From NCBI GenBank assembly GCA_022841645.1, contig JALHRC010000005.1:2804-66803 (forward strand): a stretch of 64,000 nucleotides of DNA. Reading direction: 5' to 3'. The notes beneath the pieces were generated by a model. The model saw only the letters and a program-made list of their open reading frames with translations. It was not told the origin of the DNA and ran no database searches. Below are positions 3,907 to 52,946 of the stretch, piece after piece. The stretch comes from Minisyncoccota bacterium. GTDB lineage: Bacteria; Patescibacteriota; Minisyncoccia; Phycocordibacterales; UBA918. A program made the position numbers and the translations under genes. Numbering within the stretch: position 1 is the first letter of the stretch; every line of letters begins with the position of its first letter.

Positions 3907-4010
3907 AGTGCAAAAGTAGAGAAAGGTTTAAGGTCTTTACTAAACTGCTACAGTCAGTATAGCCGACTTTACATACATGTAAAGTCGGCTATACACAGTA
4001 TCCTCTACAT

Positions 4011-4379
4011 CTATTCAAGGTAGAGTCTTGAAATATGCTTGACGAGCACCATAGCAGCGAGGGCCACCGGAATCCACGGATCAATGGTGTGTGTGAGGGT
4101 CTGGAAAATAAGGGCACAGAGTAACACTGCCAATCCAGCCAGGTACGCCAGGCGTCCCGACTGCACCCGCAACTGCACTTCACGCTCATCGGCGGCTGTT
4201 TCAGAAAGAACGAAACTCGCCCAAACAACGAGCAGCACGGTCACACACACAAGAGCCACCAGCTCTCCCATCATTGGCATCCAAAACGGCACCAGATCGG
4301 CAATAACGATCAAGAAAAAACTAATTAAAATCGCAACGGTGGTGTGCATGATAGTTTTGTGCATGAAAATCTTATTCAT
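4011..4379 (-). CDS. Small polytopic membrane protein (DUF2178-like) co-transcribed with an XRE regulator
   Basis: The 122-aa product has 3-4 hydrophobic helices. Its start overlaps the stop of the XRE gene (ATGAATAA overlap). Confidence 0.55.
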   Translation of the reverse strand: MNKIFMHKTIMHTTVAILISFFLIVIADLVPFWMPMMGELVALVCVTVLLVVWASFVLSETAADEREVQLRVQSGRLAYLAGLAVLLCALIFQTLTHTIDPWIPVALAAMVLVKHISRLYLE

Positions 4380-4620
4380 ACGTCAGGGTAAATAAATCTT
4401 CTACTGCCACCTCAAAATAACGCGCGAGAGTAAGCGCAAGTAGCACCGAGGGCGTGTAATTACCCTTTTCGATAGAAATGATGGTTTGCCGCGTTACGCC
4501 CACAGCAATCGCCAACTCTTCCTGCGTTAGGCAGCGCTCGGTACGAAACTGATTAACACAATTAGTAACTTTATAATGCACACTCATCGACAGCAGCATA
4601 GCAAACTGCATCACAATCAC
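4372..4620 (-). CDS. XRE-family helix-turn-helix transcriptional regulator (an alternative start at 4587 gives 71 aa)
   Basis: It carries the Cro/C1-type HTH signature LTQEELAIAVGVTRQTIISIEKG. Confidence 0.75.
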   Translation of the reverse strand: MIVMQFAMLLSMSVHYKVTNCVNQFRTERCLTQEELAIAVGVTRQTIISIEKGNYTPSVLLALTLARYFEVAVEDLFTLTYE

Positions 4621-5892: not shown

Positions 5893-5928
5893 CGAAAGCG
5901 GGCGGTCCCTAAAGGGACCGCCCGCTTT
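5893..5928 (+). terminator. Intrinsic terminator hairpin (aaagcgggcggtccc-taaa-gggaccgcccgcttt)
   Basis: A perfect 15-bp stem lies directly downstream of the 5311..5871 CDS. Confidence 0.6.
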
Positions 5929-6087
5929 CATTTCCGGTCATCACTCTACCATAGCCGCTTTTCCCCACCCCTAGTTGACGAGAACGGGGATGGCGGAGTA
6001 TTGTTGATTTGCCAAGGGGTTCTAGAGCAATCTTAACCCCAAGGCGTATCGCCGCACTCACGCGGCAACAGCAGGAAGGACACGACG

Positions 6088-6273
6088 ATGAAGACCCGTT
6101 TCCACCCGCGCCTCGGCGCATCCATGGCGGTCGAACCCGGTGCGAAGAAGCTCGGCACGCACACCCGCCCGATGGCCGTCGGCGCCGCTGCGACGCTGCA
6201 TGGCCAGGCCGCCGAGATCGCGCTGTTCGCCACCGCCCCGTCCCACGCCGCCGGCGGCTTCCTCGGCACCTGA
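6088..6273 (+). CDS. Hypothetical 61-aa Ala/Gly-rich protein in the GC-rich pocket
   Basis: An SD (AGGAAGGA) lies 7 nt upstream of the ATG. The ORF is followed by a perfect 11-bp hairpin (ccctctcgcag-caaaca-ctgcgagaggg, about 6295-6322). Coding status is uncertain because of GC bias. Confidence 0.25.
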   Translation: MKTRFHPRLGASMAVEPGAKKLGTHTRPMAVGAAATLHGQAAEIALFATAPSHAAGGFLGT

Positions 6274-6563
6274 AGCGCCGGCTGCTTCGGCCCTCTCGCA
6301 GCAAACACTGCGAGAGGGATCCCCGTTCTTTCACCCAAACCAAGAAGGAAACACGCACGACTGCGGCGAGGTGACTTCCCTTTTGAGTTTCTCCCCAATC
6401 AGGGAAATGCACCTCGCCGCTCGGCCTTACTTTTGGCCCAGCGGTTTTTTCTTTATATACTTTTTCACTTTCGACTTTAAAATTTTTAACTTTTCTCTTT
6501 TTAATTCTTCATTTTCAACTCTTCACTTTTCACTTTTATCTCTTCCTATTCCCTCCCCTTCAT

Positions 6564-6593
6564 TTGACAGTAAAAGCTGCCTGCCAGTATAGT
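6564..6593 (+). promoter_or_regulatory. Near-consensus sigma70-type promoter: TTGACA-N18-TATAGT with an upstream AT-rich UP-like tract
   Basis: TTGACA lies at 6564-6569 and TATAGT at 6588-6593. A 130-nt T-rich tract with repeated cttttcac motifs sits at 6430-6560. Confidence 0.45.
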
Positions 6594-6668
6594 AAAAGCG
6601 CCTGGGGAGCAAACACTTCTTTGGCAGCTGGGCGGATTCCCCGCCCAACAAACCAACAGGAGAGAACG

Positions 6669-6896
6669 ATGGGATGTGGGCAGGGCGGAAGTGGGCGTGG
6701 CGCTCCCAGGTCGTCACCCGGTACGGGCAACAGTGACATCGCGCCGACGTTGTCGGTCTTCGGGCGGATGTCCGGTCAACGTGGCCCTGATGATGTCGGC
6801 GGCGGCAATGGCGGCAGAGCGCTCGTCCTCGGCGGCATGGCTACTGCGATCGTGAGCGCGAGCGACGGGCGGGCCGTGCCCCACGTGGTGCGCTGA
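6669..6896 (+). CDS. Hypothetical 75-aa Gly-rich protein with a long structured 3' UTR
   Basis: A strong SD (AGGAGA) lies 5 nt upstream of the ATG. Nested perfect hairpins follow downstream (6918-6952, 6967-6998, 7000-7030). The ORF could instead be a GC-bias artefact within an ncRNA. Confidence 0.25.
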   Translation: MGCGQGGSGRGAPRSSPGTGNSDIAPTLSVFGRMSGQRGPDDVGGGNGGRALVLGGMATAIVSASDGRAVPHVVR

Positions 6897-7052
6897 CAAT
6901 GCGAAAGAGCGGCCGGTAGCTCCGAAAGCTACCAGTAACCGGCATGACGGGAAAGGCCCAGCGGACGAGCACCGCTCGCACCGCTGGGTCTCCATTCCAA
7001 AAACGATTTGAGGGATGGAGCACTGCTCACCCACTACAATTGCCCGCACAGC

Positions 7053-7079
7053 CACCCGGCCGTCGGGCGGTTTTTATTT
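7053..7079 (+). terminator. Intrinsic terminator (ccacccg-gccgt-cgggcgg then TTTTTATTT)
   Basis: A GC stem plus T-run ends the transcription unit that starts at the 6564 promoter, about 475 nt. Confidence 0.45.
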
Positions 7080-7379
7080 ACGCCACATACATTCAACCGC
7101 CGGCACTCCAAAATATAGCGAGCGCCCTACCGGTCAACCACCTCTCTCCTACTATCATGCATGATAGTAGGAGAGACGATTAGAGAGTGCTGTATTAGTC
7201 GCGTAGTTTTGACAATATTTTATATTGGCATACTATGCAGCTGCCATTTAACGAAATGGTCCCTGAAACCTTTTTTAGGGCGCTAGCGAGCAGAGAGGGA
7301 GTTAAGTTGCCCCCCAACCCGGCTCTTAATCTCATTCGCGTCAAACTCTTCGGCCACCCCTCGGGGTGACCGAACTTTT

Positions 7380-8468
7380 TTATGACTCCTCGTCGAGGCG
7401 CGCCGGCTTATCGAGGGTGAGTACATCCACACCGGCCGACTCGCCCGTGATGCGCAGCACGTCCTTGTCTACCTTCGCTAGTTCTTTATACCCAGCGTTG
7501 TAGTGATTGACGCTCGTCGCAAGCGCGTTGCCGAGCTTTTGGTAGTAGTCTTCATACTTGCCAATATGCGTTCCTAGTTTTTCCACGTTCTTGATGATAT
7601 CGATAGCCTTCTCTTCGATCTCAAGCGCTTTAAGGCCCTGGAGCACGGTCTGCAGGTAGGCGAGGAATGACGTGGGCGAAACAATAATCACCCGATACTT
7701 CCCGGCTGCCCGTTGGATGAGGTTCTCTTCCCCGCCAGTAATGGTATTGGAGAGGAGGTCGTAGTAGACACCTTCCGAAGGAATAAACATGAAGGCAAAG
7801 TCCATCGTCTTTTCACTCGGTCGGATGTACTTGGCGGTTTCGGTAATGCGCAACTTAAGGTCATTGATGAAGGTTTTTTCTAAAGTAGCGCGTTCTGTCG
7901 CGTCGCGCGCTTCAATGAGGCGATTGTAGTTTTCGAGCGAAAACTTTGAGTCAATCGGAATCACTTTGTCTTTCACAAACACCACAGCGTCGACAATTTC
8001 GGCATTGCCAAAGGCGTACTGCATTTGAAAGCTGCCGGGTGGCAGCACATTTTGCAGTACCGTTTCGAGGTAGTACTCGCCCAAAATTCCCCGTTGCTTC
8101 GGATTTTTAAGCACGTCTTGCAGTTGCTTGAGCTGCTCCGCAAAACCAATCACTTGGCGGTTGGTTTCTCCGAGGCGCGTCAACCCTTCCGTTACCTCGC
8201 GCACAATTTTCGACGACTCCGAGAGTTGGCTCTCGACCGTGCGCTGGATGGTACGACTCGATTCGCCGAGGCGCGCGTCGAGCGTGCGGGTGGAATCAGC
8301 GAGCCGTTCGTTCATCGTACGCGCGAGTTCTTGCATACCTTGCTGGAGGAGCAGGATACTTTGATCGGCCTCGGCTGGCTTTTCAGTGCGTTTTCGAAGA
8401 AGTAGGTACACCAAAAAGCCGTTTCCGAGGAGGAGCGCGACCACCAACACAATAATCAGCCATTCCAT
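7380..8468 (-). CDS. rmuC: DNA recombination protein RmuC (the ORF extends to 8516; the start is chosen at MEWLII)
   Basis: An N-terminal TM helix is followed by a long coiled-coil and the RmuC core (IPIDSKF, MFIPSEGVYYD, VSPTSFLAYLQ). Confidence 0.8.
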   Translation of the reverse strand: MEWLIIVLVVALLLGNGFLVYLLLRKRTEKPAEADQSILLLQQGMQELARTMNERLADSTRTLDARLGESSRTIQRTVESQLSESSKIVREVTEGLTRLGETNRQVIGFAEQLKQLQDVLKNPKQRGILGEYYLETVLQNVLPPGSFQMQYAFGNAEIVDAVVFVKDKVIPIDSKFSLENYNRLIEARDATERATLEKTFINDLKLRITETAKYIRPSEKTMDFAFMFIPSEGVYYDLLSNTITGGEENLIQRAAGKYRVIIVSPTSFLAYLQTVLQGLKALEIEEKAIDIIKNVEKLGTHIGKYEDYYQKLGNALATSVNHYNAGYKELAKVDKDVLRITGESAGVDVLTLDKPARLDEES

Positions 8469-8567
8469 AATTGAATTGCCACCAGAATACCATACCCTCC
8501 CTTGCCCACCGGGCACCTAGGGTCTATGCTGGTTTTTGGAGGACGCGGTTCCTCACAGGAGGCAACG

Positions 8568-8741
8568 ATGACCATCGCTGAAAGGGCCGGGGCAGACACT
8601 CGCTACGACATACTCGGCGAGTACGTGTTGGCACTCCTCGGACTAATCGCTGGGCTCATGCTGATCTGCTTCGTTGGTTTTTCTTTCGAGTCAACGTCCC
8701 CACGGGGGACAACCTGCACAGTTGAAAGGACAGTCCGATGA
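8568..8741 (+). CDS. Small single-TM protein 1 of 6 (57 aa)
   Basis: An SD (AGGAGG) precedes the ATG. The TM segment is YVLALLGLIAGLMLICFVGF. The stop overlaps the next start (ATGA). Confidence 0.45.
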   Translation: MTIAERAGADTRYDILGEYVLALLGLIAGLMLICFVGFSFESTSPRGTTCTVERTVR

Positions 8742-8875
8742 GTCTTGAGTCAGCACCGCCAAAAACCGGTCGCGACTTGCTTGGCGCGTTGGTCGCCATT
8801 GTGCTCGCGCTACTGGTGTACTTCTCAAAACCACGCACCACCAACCCCAACGCTAGGGAGGAGAACCATGACTGA
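8738..8875 (+). CDS. Small single-TM protein 2 of 6 (45 aa)
   Basis: An SD (AAAGGA) precedes the ATG. The TM segment is LLGALVAIVLALLVYF. It overlaps both neighbours. Confidence 0.4.
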   Translation: MSLESAPPKTGRDLLGALVAIVLALLVYFSKPRTTNPNAREENHD

Positions 8876-8999
8876 AAACAGCGACCACTGGTGGATTTCG
8901 CCTTTGTTTCTTTTCATTTTGTTCGCGCTCATCCTGTGGGCGCGGAGCATCGCACTCAAGGATCACCGGTTTCCCCGTGATCCACGAAAGGGTGAATGA
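8868..8999 (+). CDS. Small single-TM protein 3 of 6 (43 aa)
   Basis: An SD (GGGAGGAG) precedes the ATG. The TM segment is WWISPLFLFILFALILWA. Confidence 0.45.
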   Translation: MTENSDHWWISPLFLFILFALILWARSIALKDHRFPRDPRKGE

Positions 9000-9000
9000 C

Positions 9001-9183
9001 ATGGCCATGATGGAGGAGCTGCTCGGGCGGGCCTATGGAAACTGGCACTGGCTGGCAATAATGGGCGTGGTGGTCCTGCTCATGCTCCTGGTGCCGAAGT
9101 CTCACTCCACCGGGATGTACACCGCCTCAACAGAGGAAGACAACGAAGCTGGGGAGGATGATCACCATGTTCCTGACCCCTAG
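9001..9183 (+). CDS. Small single-TM protein 4 of 6 (60 aa)
   Basis: An SD-like AAAGGGTG precedes the ATG. The TM segment is WHWLAIMGVVVLLMLLV, followed by an acidic tail. Confidence 0.4.
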   Translation: MAMMEELLGRAYGNWHWLAIMGVVVLLMLLVPKSHSTGMYTASTEEDNEAGEDDHHVPDP

Positions 9184-9382
9184 GGAGCTCGCAGAAGCGA
9201 CGCTGGACGCGTGCTGTTCGGGGTTCCGGTTGTGGCTCACTCTTATCTGGGGATCGTCGGCGGGATACATTATCCCCGTTCATGAACGTCGCGAACCGAC
9301 GATCAGGACCCTATCCGGTGCCAAAGTGATCTCGCTCTGCGAAGTGCGTGCACAGCGCAAGAAAGCAGGAGGGATGCGTTGA
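9167..9382 (+). CDS. Small protein 5 of 6 (71 aa)
   Basis: An SD (GGGGAGG) lies 9 nt upstream of the ATG. The product has a CC pair and an amphipathic or hydrophobic segment (FRLWLTLIWGSSAGYIIPV). Confidence 0.35.
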   Translation: MFLTPRELAEATLDACCSGFRLWLTLIWGSSAGYIIPVHERREPTIRTLSGAKVISLCEVRAQRKKAGGMR

Positions 9383-9524
9383 CTGCGTCCATCCCCTAAC
9401 TGCGCCCGGACCCTTATTGGCCCGGGCGCTCTACGTTAGTACCAGTATTTTCTTGGCAGATAAAAACGAACCGGTGTATAGTGCACGCGGCTACGCGTTG
9501 CAAACATTGGACAAGAGGGGTGTC

Positions 9525-9620
9525 ATGGGGTTGGAATGGCTCATTTTCGCTGGTGTGGTGGTGGTCGCGGTGGGCGGCTTCCTCTTCTGGCTCGTCGGTC
9601 GCTTGTTTTTCAGCGACTAA
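9525..9620 (+). CDS. Small single-TM peptide 6 of 6 (31 aa)
   Basis: An SD (AAGAGGGG) precedes the ATG. The TM segment is WLIFAGVVVVAVGGFLFWLVG. Confidence 0.4.
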   Translation: MGLEWLIFAGVVVVAVGGFLFWLVGRLFFSD

Positions 9621-9660
9621 TCGTCCGCGGGGCGGCTGGTAATGAACGAAACTTCGTTCA
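9617..9660. terminator. Long perfect hairpin (gcggctggtaatgaacgaa-ac-ttcgttcattaccagccgc), probably a bidirectional terminator
   Basis: A 19-bp perfect stem ends the small-protein operon and separates it from yqeY. Confidence 0.5.
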
Positions 9661-9681
9661 TTACCAGCCGCCCTTAAAGTT

Positions 9682-10152
9682 ATGCTAAACTACTCCCATA
9701 TGACCCTCCACGAAACACTCAAAGATACGCTCAAAGAGGCACTGAAGGCTCGCGACGAAGTACGCCTACGCACCGTGCGCAGCGTCCTTACGGCGATCAC
9801 GAACGAACTAGTCGCTACGGGCAAAACCCCTCAAGACATCATCGACGACAACGGCTTTCTTTCCGTGGTAAAGCGCCAGGCCAAGCAGCGCCGTGAGTCG
9901 ATCGCACAATTTGATGCTGCGGGCCGCACTGATCTCTCAGAGCCCGAGAAGGCCGAGCTCGCCATCCTTGAAGCCTACCTCCCTACCCTCATGAGCCAGG
10001 AAGCCATCCGTCCGATTGCTGAAGCCAAAAAGGCCGAACTCGGTGTTACAGACAAGAGCAAGCTTGGGCAGCTCGTGGGCGCCGTTATGAAAGAACTCCA
10101 GGGCAAAGCAGATGGCGGCGACGTGAAGGTGGTGGTGGAAAGTTTATTTTAG
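9682..10152 (+). CDS. yqeY: GatB/YqeY domain protein
   Basis: It carries YqeY signatures (LKEALKARD, LTAITNE, ILEAYLP, GQLVGAVMKEL). The start could instead be at 9700. Confidence 0.8.
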   Translation: MLNYSHMTLHETLKDTLKEALKARDEVRLRTVRSVLTAITNELVATGKTPQDIIDDNGFLSVVKRQAKQRRESIAQFDAAGRTDLSEPEKAELAILEAYLPTLMSQEAIRPIAEAKKAELGVTDKSKLGQLVGAVMKELQGKADGGDVKVVVESLF

Positions 10153-10163
10153 CTCCTTCGTCC

Positions 10164-10406
10164 ATGTCTGAAGCACTACCATCTCATTCCCGTGAAAACT
10201 TAGTTTCATTAGAGCAGGAGACTTTTGAGGCGCTGAGAGAGCAGCTTACTCCCAGTAGTAATCGTGAGGACGTACGCAGGCTTGTCTTTAGTTACCTACT
10301 TGAAAATAAACATATGATGCCAGCTGACAATGTTGAGACAATCACAGATATGATTATGAACCGGGTCGGAAACGACGAACCCTACCGTGGGCCACATTCA
10401 AAATAA
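10164..10406 (+). CDS. Hypothetical protein (80 aa)
   Basis: The ORF lies 12 nt after yqeY and has a weak SD. Confidence 0.3.
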   Translation: MSEALPSHSRENLVSLEQETFEALREQLTPSSNREDVRRLVFSYLLENKHMMPADNVETITDMIMNRVGNDEPYRGPHSK

Positions 10407-10507
10407 TTCTTAGCCAAATGCTTGACTGGTGTAACGTAGGTAGCGTATAACGTTTCCGTGCCACCCGGTGGGGATCGGGGCGAGGCACAAGCACCTGGGA
10501 GGGGTTC

Positions 10508-10840
10508 ATGCTTATCATTGAGTTGCGTCGTGACTGCTTGGCCGTCTGTGGCACCAGCGAGAAGCTGGGGCCAGGCAGGTACATGTCAGTGGAACTGGGC
10601 AAGGTCGGGGCGACGAGCGTGCAGTTCTGGCGCGATGAAGAAACTGCCAGCCGGGAAGTGCGCCTGATGTGCAGCAAACCTGGACGTCTCCTCGCACTAG
10701 TCAAGGAGGTAATCCGGCGCTGTCACGAAAAGTGTCGTATGGCTGCGGGTCAGGCACAGAAGCGCACCGGGACAGCGAAGCGCCCGGGCTCGGGCACAGC
10801 TCGTGGCCACACGGTCAGCGAGCGGTCGGGCATGCACTGA
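10508..10840 (+). CDS. Hypothetical protein (110 aa) in the second GC-rich pocket
   Basis: A promoter-like TTGACT-N18-TATAAC (about 10418-10447) and an SD (GGGAGGGG) precede the ATG. A GC hairpin plus T7 terminator sits at about 10865-10905. Confidence 0.35.
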   Translation: MLIIELRRDCLAVCGTSEKLGPGRYMSVELGKVGATSVQFWRDEETASREVRLMCSKPGRLLALVKEVIRRCHEKCRMAAGQAQKRTGTAKRPGSGTARGHTVSERSGMH

Positions 10841-10966
10841 ATCGGCGTCGCCGACACGAAGGTTCCGGGCGGCACGCATTCGCGCGCCGCCACGGAGCTT
10901 TTTTTATTTATACTTGCTCACCACTACCCTTTTACGCTATAACAGTGGCGGCAACTGGAGGGGGAC

Positions 10967-11251
10967 GTGGAAGAAAAACTGATCAAAGTAAAAATCTGCA
11001 GAACCGAAGTGGTAATTAGTGGCGAACGACCATGTCCATACTTTTATGACACCGCTGTGCGGGAATGCGTACGATTTTTCCTCGACACAGCCGCCAAGTA
11101 CCACTGTCGCATCGACATGCGCGCAAAAGATGACACCTATCGCATCGCGCTGGTGCGTCAAAACGGCTGCGACATAGCTGCAGTAGCAGTGGACGTAATC
11201 TGCTGGCTTAACCACCGACAGATTCCGCACACCGTGAAAAAAATACTCTAG
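10967..11251 (+). CDS. Hypothetical Cys-rich small protein (94 aa, GTG start)
   Basis: An SD (GGAGGGGG) lies 4 nt upstream of the GTG. The product has six Cys residues. A perfect terminator hairpin (ccccgagacgc-cag-gcgtctcgggg) follows at 11252-11277. Confidence 0.4.
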   Translation: MEEKLIKVKICRTEVVISGERPCPYFYDTAVRECVRFFLDTAAKYHCRIDMRAKDDTYRIALVRQNGCDIAAVAVDVICWLNHRQIPHTVKKIL

Positions 11252-11332
11252 CCCCGAGACGCCAGCGCGTCTCGGGGTTGCTACATTTTAAATAGTGTTG
11301 TAAAAATAGAAGCAGACGTTAGGAGAAACGCT

Positions 11333-11767
11333 ATGTCGAACGATCGAGAGGGGCGCATGCCGGCGCTCGCTGTAGGATACGAAATGCGCAAGATTCTCAG
11401 TGACCCCGCAACGCTGGAAATATACTTCACTGCCCTACTTCGGGCTTGCCGGCCGAAGGGAAAGCCGCAGGAAGCCTGCCCTGAGAGTCCAATAGTTGAC
11501 TGGGTGATGGCGGTCACCGAACTCCCCTACGAGATGTGGTTCCTTAAAGACCCACGGTGGGAGAATGCCTGGTGGGTCAAGTGGCGTTGCCCAGGAGACG
11601 AGACTTGGAAGTTCGGGGGAATCATCAGAACCCCTGACGGCGTGATTTGGATCAGTGATGCCAACAAGGAGATCGTCGAGTGGGTAGGACCACCAAATCC
11701 GTTCTTCGGAGATGAGAGGGTCGCGCCATCCACCGTTGATCCGTTTCGTGACGAAGGCAAACTATGA
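11333..11767 (+). CDS. Hypothetical Trp-rich protein (144 aa)
   Basis: An SD (AGGAGA) precedes the ATG. Confidence 0.5.
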   Translation: MSNDREGRMPALAVGYEMRKILSDPATLEIYFTALLRACRPKGKPQEACPESPIVDWVMAVTELPYEMWFLKDPRWENAWWVKWRCPGDETWKFGGIIRTPDGVIWISDANKEIVEWVGPPNPFFGDERVAPSTVDPFRDEGKL

Positions 11768-12020
11768 TGAAAGGACCCCAAGGCGGCGGCGCACATGCGT
11801 CGCCGTCTTCGCTGCTTTACTAGTCGGTCCAGAATACCTCGTGGGCTCTGCTTCGAGGCTGAATGGACAAAGAATACGTAACGGCTCTGCGCGTATCATG
11901 ACATTTAGTCATGATACGCCCTCTGCTAGCAAAAACACCCTGGTGCCGCCCGCGTAATGCCCCGCCCTGTTCTGCTACGAGGTGAGCGTGGCGGATGTTT
12001 TTACTAAAATCCCTTCTTCC

Positions 12021-13298
12021 TTACCACACCAGTGCTCCAGGATCGAGAATCAGAAACGCTCCCAGCGCCAGCATGAGAATGCCTCCAATGAGAAGTGAGT
12101 AGTTGGCGTACTGCCCTCCCACCGCTTGGAGGCGACTATAGCCCCAGATCGCGAGACCAAACACAATCACGTCATCGAACATGTAGCCCAGGGTGTACAT
12201 CAGGATGTAGAACTGGCGGTCGAGGAAGGAGAGCATATTCATCTCGAGAATTTTTGTATAAGCCTGCGGGATACCAATCGAGCACGCAAACTCGATCACG
12301 TTTACTGAAAAGGCTATCGCGATAATTGAAATAATAGAAACAATCGTAATCGGCTGGTTAGCAATCGCTTTAAATTTGGCAATCACCTTCCCCTGGGTCT
12401 CAAGGTCGGTCACGTCACAAATAAGCGCGGCATCGCGATTTTTATACCAACGCCAGAGGAAAAATGAACCGCCGCCGACCGCGAGTGCACCGACGAGCGG
12501 CGTTACGATCGCGTCCAGTGCTACCCAGTCCCAGGTCTTGTACCAGACATTGAGGATAAGGTTGTACATGATACCCTCGGCGAGCATAAAGAGGCCAGCG
12601 AGGAACACCATCTTGCGCCGACTACCGGCCTGCGAAAGGAGCACACAGAAGGTGACCAGCACCCACATCGCACACGGGTTAAAACCGTCGATTACCCCCA
12701 GGAGTACCGAAAGCGAGAACAGTGAAAACGTTTGCAAATCAACAATGCCTACGAATGGCAGATCAAACACAAATGATGCGCTGTCGGCACTACACGAAAT
12801 ATCGGTACACCCCGTGCCCGAAAGGCCCGACTGCACCGGCGCACGCTCAAGGTGATCTTCAATTGTCCGAATGTCCCCACTCTGCGCCGCCACGAACGCT
12901 TCGCGCAGTGCCTTTCCTGTCGTTTCGGGGCCATTAAAACCCACCACTACCCGCTCCCCTACCACAGTAATAGGCGTCACCTTGGTAAGGTCATGCTTTT
13001 TTACCAACTCACCAAAGAGACGCGCGGCTTCGTCATCTTCGATAACATTGAGGTAGACGTACGGCAGTCCCGTGCTTTTAAGCCAGGCAAACTGCTCTTG
13101 GCAGTAGCCACAACTATCGCGGCCAAACATGATAAGGGGTACCGCCTCGCCCTGCGTTATTTCAGCCGCTTCTGCCACTACTGGTACGGCGGCCGGTGCG
13201 CTACCAAAAAGCGCTGGCCCATACCACCACAAGGCGAGCACCATCCCCACCACCATCCAGCCACCCCACCACAGTTCCCGCGCACTAAATGACATCAT
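12021..13298 (-). CDS. Glutaredoxin/thioredoxin-fold domain (CGYC) fused to a CcdA/DsbD-family thiol-disulfide transporter
   Basis: An N-terminal signal anchor is followed by SCGYCQ (glutaredoxin-like) and then a polytopic domain with FNPCAMW and a second Cys-containing TM segment. Confidence 0.8.
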   Translation of the reverse strand: MMSFSARELWWGGWMVVGMVLALWWYGPALFGSAPAAVPVVAEAAEITQGEAVPLIMFGRDSCGYCQEQFAWLKSTGLPYVYLNVIEDDEAARLFGELVKKHDLTKVTPITVVGERVVVGFNGPETTGKALREAFVAAQSGDIRTIEDHLERAPVQSGLSGTGCTDISCSADSASFVFDLPFVGIVDLQTFSLFSLSVLLGVIDGFNPCAMWVLVTFCVLLSQAGSRRKMVFLAGLFMLAEGIMYNLILNVWYKTWDWVALDAIVTPLVGALAVGGGSFFLWRWYKNRDAALICDVTDLETQGKVIAKFKAIANQPITIVSIISIIAIAFSVNVIEFACSIGIPQAYTKILEMNMLSFLDRQFYILMYTLGYMFDDVIVFGLAIWGYSRLQAVGGQYANYSLLIGGILMLALGAFLILDPGALVW

Positions 13299-21203: not shown

Positions 21204-21243
21204 CCGCGTACACCAATAAATACGTATTTATTGGTGTACGCGG
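21204..21243. promoter_or_regulatory. Operator/promoter module P1: a perfect 40-bp palindrome (ccgcgtacaccaataaatacg|tatttattggtgtacgcgg) followed by a TAGAAT -10-like box and the start codon
   Basis: It sits 16 nt upstream of the AbrB-like ATG. A near-identical module, P2, lies upstream of the 22543..23175 gene. Confidence 0.6.
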
Positions 21244-23175: not shown

Positions 23176-23192
23176 ATCCCATTCTACCACCG

Positions 23193-23228
23193 ACGTACAC
23201 CAATAAATACGTATTTATTGGTGTACGT
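23193..23228. promoter_or_regulatory. Operator/promoter module P2: a perfect 36-bp palindrome (acgtacaccaataaatacg|tatttattggtgtacgt), a TAGAAT box and the start codon
   Basis: It sits 17 nt upstream of the NudC-like ATG. Sequence identity with P1 extends through the -10-like box into the first codons (MA[N/K]R). Confidence 0.6.
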
Positions 23229-23241
23229 GGATGGACGGTGC

Positions 23242-28641: not shown

Positions 28642-28653
28642 TGAGCCCCGCGC

Positions 28654-28689
28654 AACAAAAAACTTCCGCCGGGCGGAAGTTTTTTGTTG
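28654..28689. terminator. Perfect hairpin terminator (caacaaaaaacttccgcc-cgg-gcggaagttttttgttg)
   Basis: A 16-bp stem sits between convergent genes. Confidence 0.6.
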
Positions 28690-28800
28690 CCTCTGTTTGT
28701 ACGTGGAAGAAATAGTAAAAACATCCGCCACGCTATCCACGCCGCAGAGCGGACGTGGCATTCTGGACCGACTAGTAAACCTACAAACACGGCGACCGCT

Positions 28801-29879: not shown

Positions 29880-31148
29880 CTACGCATTCATTCCTGCAAT
29901 ATAGCCTGTGGTCCAACACAGCTGGAGCGAGTAGCCGCCCGAAGGACGACGAATGTGGAGCAAGTCACCGGTGATAAAAAGATTGCCAATCTTTCGTGAA
30001 CGCATCGTTTTAGTGTCGACTTCACCCAGGTGCACCCCACCGTCAGCGACCACCGCTCGATCAAAGCCCATCAGCCCGGTGATGGTGAGCGGTAGGGCCT
30101 TCAGCGACCGACAGAGAAACCGTCGTTCTTCCTTGGTAACACTATGCACTTTCTTTTCAGGGTCAATGGTCGGAAGCGCGGAGAGCAGTGCCGAATAGAC
30201 CCCGGGCAAAAGCGTCTTCAGGGCATTTTTCAAGGTTTTATTTTTCTCGGTAGTAAAAAGGGCGAGCATCTCGGCCGCGAGCGCCGCTTCATCGAGGTCA
30301 GGAAAACAATCGAGCTTTGCTGTCACACTCCCCTTCCATAAAAGATCAGCCACCCTGGGGGAGGCATTGAGAACCGTCGGCCCAGAAATGCCAAAGTGGG
30401 TAAAGAGAATATTCCCCGTTTCGGCAAAGGCCTTTTTCTCATCTACGAGAAACGTCACTTTACCGCGCAGGCTTTTTCCTGAAAGCGCGTGCGACCACCC
30501 CTCGCTGGTCGCCAGTGGCACTATGGTGGGCGACGGTGGACTGACTGTATGTCCGAGGTCAGAAAGCCAGGCAAAGCCGTCACCGGTCGAGCCAGTTTCC
30601 GGGTGCGAAACGCCGCCAGTCGCAAGAACATACGACCGCGCGGTATACTCGACACCTCCCGCCGTCACGCTGGTGATGGTGCCGTCACGCACCATCACCT
30701 TTGTCACCGCTGCAGCTGTCTTTACCACCACCCCGGCTGTCTTGAGTGCTTTTTCAAATACACGTACTACGTCTGGAGCTTTTTGGCTTTTTGGAAACGC
30801 TCGCAAGTTTTCTTCGACGACAAGGGGGAGCTGTCGTTCTTCGAAGAACGCGAATGTTTCCGGCACTCCAAAACGCGCAAAGGCAGCGTAGAGGGCCTGT
30901 TCGGCCTCACCATATTTTTTAAGCAGTGTACGCACATCCATCTCGGCGTTTGTGATATTGCACCGCCCACCGCCCGAGATACGCACCTTATTGCCTAGTT
31001 CTCGGTTTTTCTCGAGTAGGAGCACCCGTTGCCCACGTTCGGCGGCCACAGCAGCGGCCATCAGGCCCGAAGCTCCACCCCCAATGACAATGACATCATA
31101 TGTTTCATTGCCGCCAATCTTTTTAGCAACCCCACTTTTCATGGTCAT
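29880..31148 (-). CDS. HI0933/BaiN-like NAD(P)/FAD-dependent oxidoreductase
   Basis: It has an N-terminal FAD Rossmann motif (DVIVIGGGASGLMAA) and HI0933 family signatures (GGGRCNITN, LFITGDLL). Confidence 0.8.
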   Translation of the reverse strand: MTMKSGVAKKIGGNETYDVIVIGGGASGLMAAAVAAERGQRVLLLEKNRELGNKVRISGGGRCNITNAEMDVRTLLKKYGEAEQALYAAFARFGVPETFAFFEERQLPLVVEENLRAFPKSQKAPDVVRVFEKALKTAGVVVKTAAAVTKVMVRDGTITSVTAGGVEYTARSYVLATGGVSHPETGSTGDGFAWLSDLGHTVSPPSPTIVPLATSEGWSHALSGKSLRGKVTFLVDEKKAFAETGNILFTHFGISGPTVLNASPRVADLLWKGSVTAKLDCFPDLDEAALAAEMLALFTTEKNKTLKNALKTLLPGVYSALLSALPTIDPEKKVHSVTKEERRFLCRSLKALPLTITGLMGFDRAVVADGGVHLGEVDTKTMRSRKIGNLFITGDLLHIRRPSGGYSLQLCWTTGYIAGMNA

Positions 31149-31724
31149 TTAGTATATACCCGAGGCCATAAACTTCCTTAGGTTCGCACCCTGCCTCCAG
31201 ACCACTCCCTCTCGCAGTAAATAAAATAGTGGTGTGAACCAGCCAGTAGCGCTAAGCTCCAAGACGGTGGCATCAATTATGCGCAACTCTCCAGAGTCAA
31301 TAATAAAGATATTGGTGAGACCGCCAGTAAACACGCCTTCTCGGCCGATCAGATCAATATGACACTTCTCAGAATCAACCATTACGCTATACCTACGCAT
31401 TAGCTCGGCAAACTGATTTTTTATACCTATGTCCTCTAAATCCTTACGCATGAGCGGACGGCCGACAATCTTTGGCTGGATATGCACGACATGTCTACCA
31501 CTAGCAGATACCGCGATGTCTGTCTCCAAAACAAAATTCTCCAAATATTTCTTGCACAACTCATAATCTTGCCTTGCCTTTCCTGCAGCTTTACGACCGA
31601 GAAAGTAATACAATAGCGAAAACTTTATGACTTGATTGTTTCCATAGTCATACACTATATGCTCACCTCCCCATGCAAGAAGTTTACCGATTTTTGATCT
31701 ATCGTACGTAATCATTGGATTCAA
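31149..31724 (-). CDS. Hypothetical protein with a protein-kinase-like (RIO/Kdo-kinase-like) catalytic motif
   Basis: It has HIDLIGREGVF..NIFIIDSG..IID, resembling the catalytic loop and DFG-equivalent of atypical kinases. Assignment is weak. Confidence 0.35.
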   Translation of the reverse strand: MNPMITYDRSKIGKLLAWGGEHIVYDYGNNQVIKFSLLYYFLGRKAAGKARQDYELCKKYLENFVLETDIAVSASGRHVVHIQPKIVGRPLMRKDLEDIGIKNQFAELMRRYSVMVDSEKCHIDLIGREGVFTGGLTNIFIIDSGELRIIDATVLELSATGWFTPLFYLLREGVVWRQGANLRKFMASGIY

Positions 31725-31888
31725 GAAGTGTAATAAGTTCTAGTGTTCAATACTCTCTTTCAATATACCGGTCTAAAAGTAGAGGTACCGCCGCCCACAC
31801 TAACGTCGTAGAACGTCGAATCATTCCCCTCCTTTACTTTCAAACTTCTCATGCCCTTTGAGTATATACCCTCTAAACGTCATAACTT

Positions 31889-31926
31889 CATGTACTGCAT
31901 TAAATACGTATTTAATGCAGTACATG
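31889..31926. promoter_or_regulatory. Palindrome P3 (catgtactgcattaaatacg|tatttaatgcagtacatg), same core TAAATACGTATTTA and GTAC ends as P1/P2
   Basis: It is a perfect 38-bp palindrome in the intergenic region about 165 nt upstream of the kinase-like gene. Confidence 0.45.
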
Positions 31927-31977
31927 AGAATATAGCTAGAACGTTACCAAAGCCTGATCTGGTTCACGGCAATAAAA

Positions 31978-32505
31978 CTATTCTTCAACTGCCTCAAGCA
32001 GCGTAAAGGCAGCGCCTTTTGCTTCGATATCGGCCATGGTTAACCCGCCCTTACTCGCACCATAGCGCTCCATGAGCACCTTCTTCAATGACTCAGGGTC
32101 AGTGATAGTTCCAATCGAGTGCTCAAAGTATTTGGGCGAAAGTGTATCGATGGGCAGATTATGTTCCGCGAGAGTGCACTTCATGACCCGCGCCCCTACG
32201 AGAGAGAGGAGCGGTGGCCTCTCCTCGCTGTGGGCAGTTTTGTACGTGCCGTGACGAATGATCGTAACCAAAAGATAGTTGCTGCCAGCACGGTGAATGG
32301 TGGCGCCCAAATTAAAGTGACCAATCACCGGCTGGCCATCCGCTACCGCGGCAAACTCGGCCTTGGGTATGCGAATAAGACACGCCACGCCATAGCGCTT
32401 GAGCACCTCCTCGTACGGCACCAGCACCTCCTTCTCTCCCTCGAGCAAAAATACCATTCTCGGTGGCGTAGGCGGCACGGTAGCGGTAGCGAGGGTTTCA
32501 GACAT
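31978..32505 (-). CDS. Hypothetical protein (175 aa)
   Basis: It is a clean ORF with no recognisable motif. Confidence 0.45.
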   Translation of the reverse strand: MSETLATATVPPTPPRMVFLLEGEKEVLVPYEEVLKRYGVACLIRIPKAEFAAVADGQPVIGHFNLGATIHRAGSNYLLVTIIRHGTYKTAHSEERPPLLSLVGARVMKCTLAEHNLPIDTLSPKYFEHSIGTITDPESLKKVLMERYGASKGGLTMADIEAKGAAFTLLEAVEE

Positions 32506-32570
32506 GGTGGGAAAACTAGTATAAACAAGCTGCTACTTTTTGCCAGGCCAGTACTTCCCAGTCACCCCTA

Positions 32571-32786
32571 TCAATTCAACACCACAATCATCGCATTAAG
32601 GTAGGTGGCAAATGCTACCCACAGCAGGTACGGGACAAGCAGCGCAGCAGCAAGCGTGCTCCAGCGAGCAAAGACCACGAGCGTAGTAACGAAAGTAGCA
32701 AAAGTGCCGCAATAACTACGAGCGCTAGCTCTATTGAGCACATGGTAGTAGTGGTTCCCTACATTAACCCGAGCAGCTCGCGGCAT
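32571..32786 (-). pseudogene. Chimeric remnant: 24 codons of a RAYT/IS200-like transposase N-terminus fused to the C-terminal end of a TspO/MBR-like protein
   Basis: The N-terminus (MPRAARVNVGNHYYHVLNRASAR) matches the HUH Y1 transposase N-terminal pattern. The C-terminus (LVPYLLWVAFATYLNAMIVVLN) resembles a TspO C-terminus. Confidence 0.4.
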
Positions 32787-32828
32787 TGATTAACTGTATC
32801 ATAAAGGCTCCTGACCCTTTTTGCGAAG
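32719..32828 (-). mobile_element. Repeat copy A: about 110-bp fragment carrying the promoter and 5' end of a RAYT/IS200-like transposase gene
   Basis: It is about 80% identical to copy B at 34427..34546 in the same orientation. Confidence 0.45.
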
Positions 32829-32905
32829 CTAATCTCCGGAGCTGCAAAACATCACTCTAAAAATTGGTACGGCTGCTAGCTGCCTGGGCTGATGTTAGAA
32901 ACCAT

Positions 32906-33337
32906 TTAATGCATTAACCCATTAGCTACTAGGTAGCGAGCCACTGCTACTCTCGTGTACTCACTTGCAAAGATGACGCGTATAGCCTCATATTCCTGCT
33001 GCCCAGCTAGGTACTTATAGAGATATGAATTGACCATAGCTAGACGAGAAATTTCTTCCCCCAACGCTTCGTCACCTATAGCGAGGTAGGGTGCAAGGTA
33101 TCTCTTAAGTTTTCTTCCCTCCTCACTGGAAGCCATTTGCTTTAGTGCATGGTCTGCACTCGCTGAACCTTCACTATCACCATCAGTGTAAAGGAGGTGC
33201 GTTACATCAGTCTGTAACCGAGACATTATCCGCATCATTTCCTCCATCCTAGGATCAATAATAAATCCTTGGATTGGTAAATTTGAGACGTAATAGCCTT
33301 TTGACATTGCACTAGTGTAGCATTTATGGTTGTCCAT
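32906..33337 (-). CDS. Hypothetical protein (143 aa)
   Basis: It is a clean ORF with no recognisable motif. Confidence 0.4.
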   Translation of the reverse strand: MDNHKCYTSAMSKGYYVSNLPIQGFIIDPRMEEMMRIMSRLQTDVTHLLYTDGDSEGSASADHALKQMASSEEGRKLKRYLAPYLAIGDEALGEEISRLAMVNSYLYKYLAGQQEYEAIRVIFASEYTRVAVARYLVANGLMH

Positions 33338-33366
33338 TTGGGACTAGGCTGGAACACTTCCCTGTC

Positions 33367-33681
33367 TTGGACGATGTTAGAACTCTTCTGGTTCCCATGC
33401 GCTACAATAACGATATGCAGTCGCTGGAATATGTAACCGTTTTAATAGGTGCCACATTGCCAGCTCTAAGCTTTCTAATGCAATATCATTTCAGTGCTAA
33501 AGCCGGTACCCTGGATGCATTCAAAAGACACCAAATGGTGTACTGGGGGGACTGGCTTCTTGTACCCTTCGCTGCAATAGTTGGGCTACTCGTCAACTGG
33601 GCGAACATTGCATGGCTGTTAGCACCCTGCCTAAAAGTCAATATCTGCTGGCCGTCTGGGACGAGATTAGAATTTTTATAG
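33367..33681 (+). CDS. Hypothetical membrane protein (104 aa)
   Basis: It has two or three hydrophobic helices. Confidence 0.35.
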   Translation: MDDVRTLLVPMRYNNDMQSLEYVTVLIGATLPALSFLMQYHFSAKAGTLDAFKRHQMVYWGDWLLVPFAAIVGLLVNWANIAWLLAPCLKVNICWPSGTRLEFL

Positions 33682-34317
33682 AAAAGTCTTAATATCAGAA
33701 AGTTCATGCACAACTTTCCAAGCGGATTCTTTCACAACCTCCGGCGCATTGGTAAAAGTAACTCCTCGATTAGTTGCCTTGAAAAGCTCAATATCATTTG
33801 CTCCATCACCAATACAGAGACACTCCGACATGTCTATTCCCTCCCGTGAACAGAAGTTTTCTAGATGCTGGAGCTTTGCGTATTTTTCCTCTCCCTGACT
33901 CGCCACTTCCGAGAGAAATCCCGCATCATCAAAAAGTAATCTGGTGTTGGCTTTACGTAGTGGAATAGTCAATTTATCAGCAACTAAATCTACCAGCACA
34001 TCAAAAGAACCAGAAATAATTGCCGATTGATAGTTCTTTTGATGAAGATACGTGACCAGATCTGTGGCTCCCTCCTTCAACTCATAAGCGGATAAGGCAG
34101 TGATTATATTTTCTCTCGTAGCAAGTCCACGCTCCTTGTACAAAGTCACTAGCTTGGACGTCCACTCGTCGTATGGCAACTCCCCTCTCACGTACGCTTC
34201 GTACATTTCCAAGTCCTCTTCAGGAGTAATACCGAGTGCGATATTTAAAACATACCAACTGTTTTGCTTTATGAGAGTCTCATCCATATCAAAACAGATG
34301 AGTTTGACCTTATTCAT
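33676..34317 (-). CDS. HAD-superfamily hydrolase (subfamily IB, phosphoserine-phosphatase-like)
   Basis: It has the HAD motifs I (ICFDMDETL), II (SGS), and III/IV (K..GDGANDIE). Confidence 0.75.
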   Translation of the reverse strand: MNKVKLICFDMDETLIKQNSWYVLNIALGITPEEDLEMYEAYVRGELPYDEWTSKLVTLYKERGLATRENIITALSAYELKEGATDLVTYLHQKNYQSAIISGSFDVLVDLVADKLTIPLRKANTRLLFDDAGFLSEVASQGEEKYAKLQHLENFCSREGIDMSECLCIGDGANDIELFKATNRGVTFTNAPEVVKESAWKVVHELSDIKTFL

Positions 34318-34368
34318 AGTGAAAGTATAGCAAAAGTTCTGCCGTCACCGACCGGTACCAAATTTTCG

Positions 34369-34494
34369 CTATGAGAAACAAGTTTCAAAGAGCCCGTACG
34401 CTTCCTTCGTATCAAATAAAATCAAACGAGCGCTGGCTCGGTTGAGCACATGGAAATAGTGGTTTTTTACATCCACCCGAGCAGCCCGTGGCAT
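34369..34494 (-). pseudogene. Remnant of a RAYT/IS200-like transposase 5' end (41 codons, MPRAARVDVKNHYFHVLNRASAR...)
   Basis: It is the N-terminal Y1-transposase pattern only and lies within repeat copy B (34427..34546). Confidence 0.4.
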
Positions 34495-34546
34495 TGATAG
34501 ATTGTATCACAAAAGGCTCCTGACCCCTTTTTGCCCCTTTTTGCAA
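34427..34546 (-). mobile_element. Repeat copy B of the RAYT/IS200-like 5' fragment
   Basis: It aligns with copy A and has an internal tandem duplication (cccctttttg x2). Confidence 0.45.
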
Positions 34547-34566
34547 TTGTTGCTTTCATAAGCTAA

Positions 34567-34782
34567 CTAAATGAAATCTTGAGGAGTGAGTTGCGACTGC
34601 CGCAAAATGGAACGAAATGTGCCGTGCGGTATCTCTTTCTTATTGGCCGGAACAATCACTGTGAGAGTTTCCTCCTCGCCGATTTTGCGGTATTTCACAT
34701 GACTGCCCCTTTGGGACACAAAGTTAAAATTGTTTCTCTCTAGAATGGAAATTATACGGTCAGAGGAATGTAATCTCGGCAT
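34567..34782 (-). CDS. hicA: HicA family mRNA interferase toxin
   Basis: It has the YcfA/HicA signature (IISILERNNF..RGSHVKY). It lies 3 nt downstream of hicB. Confidence 0.75.
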   Translation of the reverse strand: MPRLHSSDRIISILERNNFNFVSQRGSHVKYRKIGEEETLTVIVPANKKEIPHGTFRSILRQSQLTPQDFI

Positions 34783-34785
34783 GCA

Positions 34786-34989
34786 TTACACCGAGACTAT
34801 TTCAGGTTCTTCTACTATAAAAACGACATCATCGGATGCGTCTTCAAAATAAAGTTCAAGAGCTTCTCGGAGATTTTTGAGTGCTTCTTCCTTTGAAGAT
34901 CCGAAGCTTGAAATATCCACATTTAAAGACTGAGCAACGTATTGATTGCCTTCTTTCCAAACTACATTTTTAAAATCTGCAATATCCAT
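34786..34989 (-). CDS. hicB: HicB family antitoxin (UPF0150)
   Basis: It is a small acidic protein upstream of and adjacent to hicA with HicB N-terminal-domain-like sequence. Confidence 0.65.
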   Translation of the reverse strand: MDIADFKNVVWKEGNQYVAQSLNVDISSFGSSKEEALKNLREALELYFEDASDDVVFIVEEPEIVSV

Positions 34990-35090
34990 ACCTTACAATA
35001 ATACAATACTTTAGACTAAAAGTATAGCAAACACGAGCAGAAAATTGGGGGGCATCCACTATTTCCCGTATTCTTGTGATGTAGTTTTTG

Positions 35091-42193: not shown

Positions 42194-42300
42194 TAGCTTA
42201 CCACGCTAGAAGAAGGCTTTTAAGCGAGGGTTGGCGGCAATTCTTGCCCAGACTACATTCAGTACGATTGGTTTGTAGTTCGAGTTGCAGGCAGGACCAT

Positions 42301-42338
42301 GGCTAGTACCGTTATCATATATGATAACGGTACTAGCC
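42301..42338. terminator. Perfect 38-nt palindrome (ggctagtaccgttatcatat|atgataacggtactagcc) overlapping the serS stop codon
   Basis: A 19-bp loop-less stem may act as a terminator or a protein-binding site. Confidence 0.4.
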
Positions 42339-51960: not shown

Positions 51961-52875
51961 ATGCCGAAACCAACACTCATCGCTATCGTCGGCCCTACCG
52001 CCTCGGGCAAAAGTGCACTTGCAGTCGAGCTAGCCCTTGAGCTGGGTGGCGAGGTGATTTCTGTGGATTCACGGCAGGTGTATCGTGGCATGGACATTGG
52101 CACTGGCAAGATTACCCAGGCAGAGATGCGCGGCATTCCCCACCACCTGTTTGATCTTGTCGATCCGGTAAATGACACGTACACCGCCACCGACTTTGAG
52201 CGCGACGCCAACGCTGCTATCAGTGATATTCTTGCGCGCGGTAAACAGCCGATTCTCTGTGGTGGCACTTTCTTTTACCTCGACGTTTTGCGTGGACGCA
52301 TGTCACCAGCTCCTGTCCCTCCGAACCCGCAACTTCGTGCACAGTTAGAGGCACTTTCCCTTTCTGAACTAGAAGTGCGACTGACACAACTCGACCCCGA
52401 ACGGGCGGCCACCATCGACAGCGAAAACCCCCGTCGCCTGATTCGGTCTATCGAAATCGCTACCGCCCTTGGTCATGTGCCAAAGGCTACGCCGGTGGAA
52501 TCACCATACGACTGGCACAGTATCGGCATTGATGTACCGCCAGCGACTTTGCGCCAGCGGATTAGTGAACGACTCGACGAACGATTAGCAGCGGGCATGG
52601 TTGATGAGGTGGTGAAGCTCCACGACGATGGAGTGTCGTGGGATCGGCTCGTATCGTTTGGCCTCGAGTACCGCTACATTGCCGAACATCTACAAGGCAA
52701 GCTTTCATACGGCAACATGCGCACCCAGCTTTTTTTCGCAATTTGTGGGTACGCCAAACGCCAGCGCACGTGGCTCCGCCGCGACCCGAACATACGGTGG
52801 TATCCGTTTCCGGTTGACGTACAAACGGTACTCAAGGAACTTTCTAACTACAATTCCCCAGAACCCTTCGGTTAA
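51961..52875 (+). CDS. miaA: tRNA dimethylallyltransferase
   Basis: It has the P-loop IAIVGPTASGKS and MiaA motifs (DSRQVYRGMDIGTGK). Two perfect palindromes follow (52860-52885, 52896-52917). Confidence 0.9.
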   Translation: MPKPTLIAIVGPTASGKSALAVELALELGGEVISVDSRQVYRGMDIGTGKITQAEMRGIPHHLFDLVDPVNDTYTATDFERDANAAISDILARGKQPILCGGTFFYLDVLRGRMSPAPVPPNPQLRAQLEALSLSELEVRLTQLDPERAATIDSENPRRLIRSIEIATALGHVPKATPVESPYDWHSIGIDVPPATLRQRISERLDERLAAGMVDEVVKLHDDGVSWDRLVSFGLEYRYIAEHLQGKLSYGNMRTQLFFAICGYAKRQRTWLRRDPNIRWYPFPVDVQTVLKELSNYNSPEPFG

Positions 52876-52946
52876 CCGAAGGGTTCGCACTCTTAGTTCA
52901 GCCCGTTAGTACGATCGATCGTACTAAGTGCGCCTGCCTCTTTTTT

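Follow-up and report, generated by a model that had tools for sequence, protein, structure and literature searches.

A block of six small open reading frames (ORFs), designated S1 to S6, is located between the RmuC and YqeY genes on a 64,000-nucleotide stretch of a Minisyncoccota bacterium contig (JALHRC010000005.1, positions 2,804 to 66,803; hereafter the window). We favor the interpretation, to which we assign a probability of about one half, that the block is a real operon restricted to this lineage, either acquired or of recent origin, which codes for four single-pass membrane microproteins and a basic partner, followed by a separately expressed 31-aa peptide. All six ORFs are initiated with ATG and are arranged head to tail on the plus strand within 8568-9620 (Table 1).

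The ORFs are tightly packed: S1 and S2 share a stop/start overlap within ATGA, S2 and S3 overlap by 8 nt, S3 and S4 are separated by 1 nt, and S4 and S5 overlap by 17 nt. A Shine-Dalgarno (SD)-like motif of 4 to 6 nt (5 to 6 nt for S1 to S5) is positioned 4 to 9 nt ahead of all six ATGs. S1 to S5 are thus same-strand genes joined by stop/start overlaps or a gap of a single nucleotide, each with its own ribosome-binding site, and from this architecture they are predicted to form a translationally coupled polycistronic operon. S1, S2, S3, S4, and S6 each have one hydrophobic 19-residue window with a mean Kyte-Doolittle value of 1.9 to 2.8, and S5 is the exception, with a maximum of 1.1 on the same scale. 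Net flank charges across the peptides range from -7 to +6, and those of S1 and S3 suggest an N-out/C-in orientation. There is no significant mutual similarity among S1 to S6 that would indicate paralogy, and an AlphaFold2 model of S5 has a pLDDT (predicted local distance difference test score) of 54, too low for a fold search. An earlier note, made from the DNA letters alone, had described a head-to-tail cluster of tiny, mostly single-helix ORFs with overlapping stop and start codons and individual SD motifs, and had credited five of the six with a clear hydrophobic helix; coordinates, junctions, and hydropathy all agree with that description. Its statement that such small ORFs are often missed by gene callers is not borne out, as the NCBI and/or Logan callers had called them.

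Table 1. Positions of the six ORFs, their flanking genes, and associated transcription signals in the window (SD, Shine-Dalgarno motif; TM, transmembrane)
Feature	Position	Strand	Description
RmuC gene, left boundary	7380-8468	-	Pfam RmuC E 2.9e-52; conserved host gene, divergent from the block
Candidate S1-S5 promoter, TTGCCC-17 nt-TATGCT	8502-8530	+	weak, 8/12 matches; read by eye, below the consensus-scan threshold
S1	8568-8741	+	57 aa; one predicted TM helix, residues 20-38; SD AGGAGG 5 nt upstream
S2	8738-8875	+	45 aa; one predicted TM helix; SD AAGGA
S3	8868-8999	+	43 aa; one predicted TM helix; basic C-tail; SD AGGAG
S4	9001-9183	+	60 aa; one predicted TM helix; acidic C-tail, net -7; SD GGTGA
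S5	9167-9382	+	71 aa; weakly hydrophobic; C-terminal half basic, net +6; three Cys; SD GGAGG
GC-rich hairpin after S5	9402-9429	+	11-bp arms; -22.8 kcal/mol, z -2.7; likely terminator of S1-S5
Sigma-70-like promoter ahead of S6, TTGGCA-18-TATAGT	9453-9482	+	10/12 matches, consensus scan
S6	9525-9620	+	31 aa; hydrophobic peptide; SD GAGG
Terminal inverted repeat after S6	9630-9673	+	21 bp perfect, 2-nt loop; -42.7 kcal/mol, z -9.4
YqeY gene, right boundary	9700-10152	+	Pfam YqeY E 1e-39; conserved host gene
Long perfect intergenic hairpins, examples	3957-3994, 5894-5929, 7143-7176, 21204-21243, 23187-23234, 28652-28690, 31888-31927, 42300-42339, 52861-52886

The cassette is inserted at a site that is otherwise well conserved. 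The nearest relatives by RmuC are Paceibacteria/Parcubacteria of the Candidate Phyla Radiation (CPR), the closest being a Candidatus Kaiserbacteria metagenome-assembled genome (L001) with an RmuC that is 75 to 79% identical. Of 80 Paceibacteria relatives, each representing a species, 73 have RmuC and YqeY as divergent neighbors, and in about 50 of them the two genes are less than 200 bp apart. In L001 the gap spans just 43 bp (5949-5991) and holds two back-to-back leaderless-type promoters. Because the corresponding gap in the window is about 1230 bp, we interpret the six-ORF block as an insertion into a conserved divergent promoter region; judged by synteny, it is a lineage-specific insertion of ~1.2 kb extending from about 8500 to 9673. 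The closest available relatives are without the entire segment rather than with degraded copies of it, as expected of a horizontally acquired genomic islet at a position of conserved synteny. Gaps of more than 400 bp are present in about 18 relatives, with cargo that includes RadC-like, P-type ATPase, ATP-binding cassette (ABC) transporter, and toxin-antitoxin (TA) genes, and this gap seems to be a recurrent, cargo-tolerant insertion point in Paceibacteria. No small-TM clusters were found in the RmuC/YqeY gap of other genomes, where the cargo consists of ordinary genes. We also note gaps of 0.8 to 3.6 kb with unrelated cargo at L015, L018, L032, L040, L042, L050, L051, L052, L064, L067, L069, and L073.

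No integrase or transposase was found near the block and there are no convincing flanking direct repeats, the only similarity being a weak, inverted one of S6 to the 5' end of RmuC. Exact look-ups of YqeY and RmuC, made in search of cassette-free variants, returned the same contig only. The best RmuC match in a search for closer relatives in Joint Genome Institute (JGI) metagenomes is 65% identical, and there is thus no sister genome for dN/dS analysis.

The sequence itself is secure. Six Logan contigs, independently assembled from different runs, match the window with 100% identity over the whole block and its two junctions, with zero single-nucleotide polymorphisms among them, and because these independent assemblies agree, frameshift errors and a chimeric join are excluded. 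The array of ORFs is also not readily generated by chance: none of 2,000 dinucleotide-preserving shuffles of 8449-9700 gives an array of at least five tiled SD-led small ORFs, and one gives an array of four. Both strands of 1.46 Mb of related loci contain no array of at least five, and the only four-ORF array there (in L159) has products that are not TM proteins.

Codon usage adds to this, though unevenly across the six ORFs. After training on 34 long genes from the window, a codon log-likelihood model ranked the annotated frame first of the six frames in all six ORFs. A fairer control is provided by spurious ORFs of the same length lying out of frame inside known genes, against which S2 (score 0.19, p 0.033), S4 (0.32, p 0.008), and S6 (0.31, p 0.008) are clearly coding-like, with lower scores for S1 (0.03, p 0.19), S3 (0.09, p 0.11), and S5 (0.04, p 0.165); the combined p for the six ORFs is 2e-4.

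An origin that is foreign or in some other way unusual is argued for chiefly by the expression signals of the cassette, which are unlike those of the host genes. An SD motif of at least 5 nt at proper spacing is present in front of 5 of the 6 cassette ORFs compared to 1 of 31 host genes (Fisher p 8e-5), whereas a -10-like TANNNT ending 5 to 12 nt before the start, as expected for leaderless transcripts, precedes 15 of the 31 host genes and none of the six cassette ORFs; the backgrounds over all ATGs are 7% for the SD motif and 10% for TANNNT. Operon-internal host genes are likewise without SD motifs, and plus-strand SD motifs are denser in the 8- to 9-kb bin than anywhere else in the window. 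The frequency of the -10-like motifs implies that leaderless mRNAs are widespread in this Kaiserbacteria-like genome, at least as predicted from start-site context. Examples of TANNNT before a start are at 9674-9699, at the starts of 12021-13298 and 33676-34317, and at the start at 59668, and an extended -10 of the form TATGCTAAA(A/C)T is present ahead of YqeY in the window and ahead of RmuC in L001. In Parcubacteria, the anti-SD motif is detected in just 48% of 16S genes, and SD helices are suggested not to form in those lineages (Tsurumaki et al., RNA 2022, PMC9297842); neither the window nor the related loci contain a 16S gene. An SD-led cassette in a leaderless host is a place to ask whether a Parcubacterium retains SD-dependent initiation, and how new genes come to be expressed in reduced genomes.

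Because a hairpin (9402-9429) and a promoter-like site (9453-9482) stand between S5 and S6, the block is most simply read as two transcription units in a 5+1 layout, and not as the single operon of six that had been proposed previously. That the block ends in a perfect hairpin was correctly recognized, although the arms are 21 bp and not 19 bp in length. Perfect palindromic hairpins with 13- to 24-bp arms, 0- to 3-nt loops, and no U-tract occur across the window, many at gene 3' ends; such long perfect hairpins, that after S6 included, appear to be the standard terminator style of this genome. The exact 21-mer of the terminal repeat has no second copy in the window, and an integron/attC reading of the hairpins was ruled out by the presence of long perfect hairpins at many gene ends across the window. 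YqeY has a -10-like TAAACT that ends 8 nt ahead of its ATG and is downstream of the terminal hairpin, which is predicted to insulate the YqeY promoter. A consensus scan of both strands from 8300 to 9800, which bears on the antisense RNA that the earlier note had proposed looking for, gave the plus-strand site ahead of S6 as its sole hit and no antisense promoter, although such a scan is a weak exclusion. An Rfam search of the block gave no match, with just one insignificant small RNA (sRNA) match at E ≤ 1 (E 0.96), and no alternative antiterminator fold was detected.

The six proteins have no relatives in the collections that were searched. All are present in a collection of 15 billion proteins, where each forms its own cluster at 90% identity and none shares a cluster with another protein when identity is lowered to 50%. 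Just two further proteins fall into the 90% clusters, an S4 start-codon variant and a 392-aa protein, unrelated, that is grouped with S6; the latter reads like a type I restriction specificity (HsdS) subunit, and is a clustering artifact and not a relative. With the six proteins concatenated as query, phmmer found their six self matches among all 1.84 billion representatives at 50% identity (E 7e-9 to 1e-38), which serve as a positive control, and nothing else at E ≤ 0.001; S5 alone gave its self match only, at E values up to 10. Searches of 160 related loci with tblastn and blastn returned noise only. The earlier statement that no family is recognizable is in line with searches of Pfam-A, NCBIfam, PHROGs, PADLOC, and PDB sequences, which gave no family match at cut-off, those of PADLOC and PDB being empty. 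Sub-threshold matches include S3 with VirB3 (PF05101; E 0.027, 15.2 bits versus a cut-off of 23.9 bits), DUF2905 (E 0.039), CbtB (E 0.25-0.49), and a sigma-factor model (E 0.048), and matches to PHROGs holins and spanins are not significant (E 0.3-0.5). S1, S4, and S5 have no relatives in IMG/VR (2.9 million viral contigs), and blastn of the block against phage and plasmid collections was empty. The N-terminal 'LTPRELAEA' of S5 raised the idea of a helix-turn-helix (HTH) or excisionase protein, which has no Pfam or NCBIfam support.

S6 is distinguished by its resemblance to the adjacent host gene. The peptide (M-G-LEWLIFAGVVVVAVG-GFLFWLVGR...) can be aligned to the membrane anchor at the RmuC N-terminus (MEWLIIVLVVALLLGNGFLVYLLLR) with a BLOSUM62 local score of 49, ranking first of 863 TM windows and first of 157 RmuC N-termini. 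The controls, 863 TM-like windows from the window and related loci (maximum, 44) and 156 RmuC N-termini of other genomes (mean, 24.8; maximum, 44), all score lower. In the DNA, two short stretches also match colinearly (GGAATGGCTnATT and TGGTGGTCGCG); they are inverted and 1.06 kb apart. This suggests that S6 may derive from part of the RmuC 5' end, its first 25 codons, that was duplicated in inverted orientation and has since diverged. A derivation of S1 to S5 from the RmuC anchor is not supported, as they have no comparable similarity and S6 alone stands out.

In the model that we favor, S1 to S5 would be expressed as a leadered polycistronic operon in which coupling yields the products in fixed proportions, with the GC hairpin behind S5 closing this unit. 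S1 to S4 would be single-pass membrane microproteins and S5 a basic, Cys-containing 71-aa protein, and S6 would constitute a second unit, transcribed from its own sigma-70-like promoter and ended by a host-type hairpin. The products are predicted to insert into the membrane, where they probably assemble as hetero-oligomers. It is plausible that the +6 C-terminal half of S5 pairs with the -7 acidic tail of S4, and the two genes overlap. We infer either horizontal acquisition or a recent origin, and our best guess is that the products make up a small membrane complex, accessory rather than housekeeping in function, that stems from a mobile or phage-like element. A bolder version, which we regard as improbable, is that a functional SD-dependent operon of previously unseen membrane microproteins was acquired by a largely leaderless, SD-free Parcubacterium, that S6 was born from a duplicated RmuC anchor, and that the complex could serve to exclude phages or to interact with the episymbiont's host cell. 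If true, the cassette would be a marker of two coexisting translation-initiation modes in one CPR cell. If expressed, it would add six family-less membrane microproteins to the uncharacterized CPR gene pool. We note, however, that hypothetical operons of this sort are common in metagenome-assembled genomes, and that the unusual aspects are limited to the contrast between SD-led and leaderless genes and the possible RmuC origin of S6.

The block most resembles other translationally coupled small-membrane-protein operons, and on sequence features its class is that of the taxonomically restricted small TM proteins abundant in CPR bacteria, with no described sequence family. One or more TM helices are predicted in 76 of the 106 protein families enriched in the CPR, and annotation is poor for most of them (PMC6744442). 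The cassette is similar to these ORFan proteins in coding for predicted TM proteins of unassigned function in a Kaiserbacteria-like genome, but its six products belong to no family and are part of a lineage-specific insertion and not of the conserved CPR core. Phage lysis cassettes (holin/antiholin and spanins) share the tiny single-TM proteins, charged C-termini, and overlapping coupled genes, but are expected to have an adjacent endolysin gene, usually a spanin gene too, and a phage or prophage context; here the neighbors are RmuC and YqeY, with further orphan ORFs that have no match to lysis or phage families. S6, at 31 aa, nearly all hydrophobic, and with its own promoter and a strong 3' hairpin, resembles the hydrophobic peptides of type I TA systems (Hok, Fst, TisB, and Ldr). 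Type I toxins are not known to be polycistronic, in contrast to S1 to S5, and no antisense promoter or sRNA was found.

Multi-peptide leaderless bacteriocin operons of the aureocin A70/enterocin L50 type code for several peptides of 30 to 60 aa head to tail in one operon, an arrangement similar to that seen here. The block peptides, however, are neither uniformly cationic nor mutually similar, no immunity gene is adjacent, no ABC exporter or C39 peptidase gene is present in the neighborhood, and there is no family match. The weak similarity of S3 to VirB3-like type IV secretion system subunits lies over its TM helix, but covers just 28 residues, and no VirB4 or other type IV secretion gene is nearby. 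A type IV pilin or pseudopilin reading was rejected, as no ORF has a G↓F-x-x-x-E motif (S1 has G17↓E18, with Glu at +1) and there is no pilin Pfam match. The holin-, bacteriocin-, immunity-like, or toxic roles raised in the earlier note thus find no endolysin, exporter, antisense promoter, or PHROGs or PADLOC match in their favor.

Several observations weigh against a functional lineage-specific operon. The codon scores of S1, S3, and S5 are borderline (p 0.11-0.19), and codon usage of the block is somewhat atypical, as the concatenated score (0.15) is below the host mean (0.26). The base composition is not clearly foreign, with a GC content of 0.564 (85th percentile) and an ordinary, host-like dinucleotide signature; the GC content at third codon positions (GC3), at 0.684, exceeds that of every one of the 35 host genes, although RmuC and YqeY on either side are similarly high (0.645-0.649). 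The two DNA matches between S6 and RmuC have E values of 0.27 and 4.2 individually, and the similarity spans ~25 mostly hydrophobic residues. A query of 31 to 71 aa needs about 41 bits at this database size by our estimate, and moderately similar homologues could escape; because no homologue was found, purifying selection cannot be shown. Finally, if the host 16S rRNA lacks the anti-SD motif, the SD motifs of the block would be nonfunctional, leaving its ORFs as possible silent relics.

Such a silent relic is the main rival, and although we consider it unlikely, it is the alternative that we take most seriously. The block would then be recent foreign DNA from an SD-using donor (a phage, a plasmid, or a host bacterium) that is intact only for lack of time, is barely or not translated, and has no function. 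This is consistent with SD motifs that are rare in the host genes and universal in the cassette, with the scarcity of anti-SD motifs in Parcubacteria, with the low codon score and high GC3, and with the absence of the cassette from all relatives examined and of its homologues from the 15 billion proteins. Two neighboring segments (5930-7140 and 10164-11960) also have SD-led ORFs and no homologues in close relatives, and one of their products is a database singleton. However, S6 has a host-style long perfect hairpin and a good promoter match, the dinucleotide signature is that of the host, the five coupled ORFs and all of the SD motifs are intact, and no donor is evident in IMG/VR or the phage and plasmid collections. 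It is improbable, in our view, that the block is instead a phage- or mobile-element-derived module whose products oligomerize in the membrane for holin/antiholin lysis, superinfection exclusion, or as a small-toxin/immunity set. The architecture of tiny single-TM proteins with charged tails and overlapping genes fits, as does insertion at a site with variable cargo in other Paceibacteria, and the faint holin and spanin matches point the same way; but phage genes, including any for an endolysin, integrase, or exporter, are absent from the insertion, no family match was obtained for the orphan ORFs on the far side of YqeY, PHROGs and PADLOC gave nothing significant, and neither viral relatives nor an antisense promoter were found.

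That these are chance ORFs in a noncoding spacer, with the region being regulatory or junk DNA, is distinctly improbable: 11 to 19% of spurious ORFs reach the codon scores of S1, S3, and S5 and there is no conservation, but shuffling does not regenerate the array, the annotated frame is best throughout with a low combined p, a correctly spaced SD precedes every start compared to 7% of ATGs by chance, and a regulatory region has no Rfam match to commend it. We regard it as very improbable that S6 alone is the functional element, either as a type I toxin-like peptide or as a leader peptide/attenuator for YqeY. It is a 31-aa hydrophobic peptide with its own promoter and has a very strong hairpin directly upstream of YqeY; nonetheless, there is no antisense promoter, the sRNA match is insignificant, YqeY retains its leaderless-type -10 downstream of the hairpin, and such hairpins are generic terminators in this genome with no alternative antiterminator fold detected. 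Least credible is the reading that the gene of a single polytopic membrane protein has been broken by frameshifts into a pseudogene, or that the ORFs are an assembly artifact, with one helix kept in each fragment. The frames do alternate (0, 2, 0, 1, 2) and there is one helix per ORF, but each ORF has its own ATG and SD motif and the six assemblies are identical. The concatenated query is well suited to recognizing a polytopic gene that has been broken up, since several of its pieces would align in order with an intact homologue, and no such homologue was found among the 1.84e9 representatives or in PDB. The alternative of a single longer gene revealed by error correction, which the earlier note had named as a refutation, is not supported.

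Other segments of the window have unusual content. The GC-rich (0.60) segment at 5930-7140, downstream of RmuC, has no counterpart in close relatives and no Rfam match; it contains SD-led small ORFs at 6088-6273 (61 aa) and 6669-6896 (75 aa) and a 130-nt pyrimidine/AT-rich low-complexity tract at about 6440-6570. Just past YqeY, at 10164-11960, is a second orphan block of four ORFs (80, 110, 94, and 144 aa), three of which have SD motifs; sigma-70-like promoters are readable upstream (e.g., TTGACT-18-TATAAC at 10422-10451), there are hairpins after at least two of the ORFs, and the 144-aa protein is a singleton among 5.8 billion clusters. The region at 31000-35000 has a low GC content (0.42-0.44) and strongly SD-led ORFs without Pfam domains at 31149-31655, 31978-32421, and 32906-33235, and is possibly another acquired segment. 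On the minus strand at 4011-4620 are the genes for an 82-aa regulator of the Xre HTH_3 type (4372-4620) and for a multi-TM protein of 122 aa (4011-4379), with the former extending over the start of the latter; pairs of a small regulator and a membrane protein are common.

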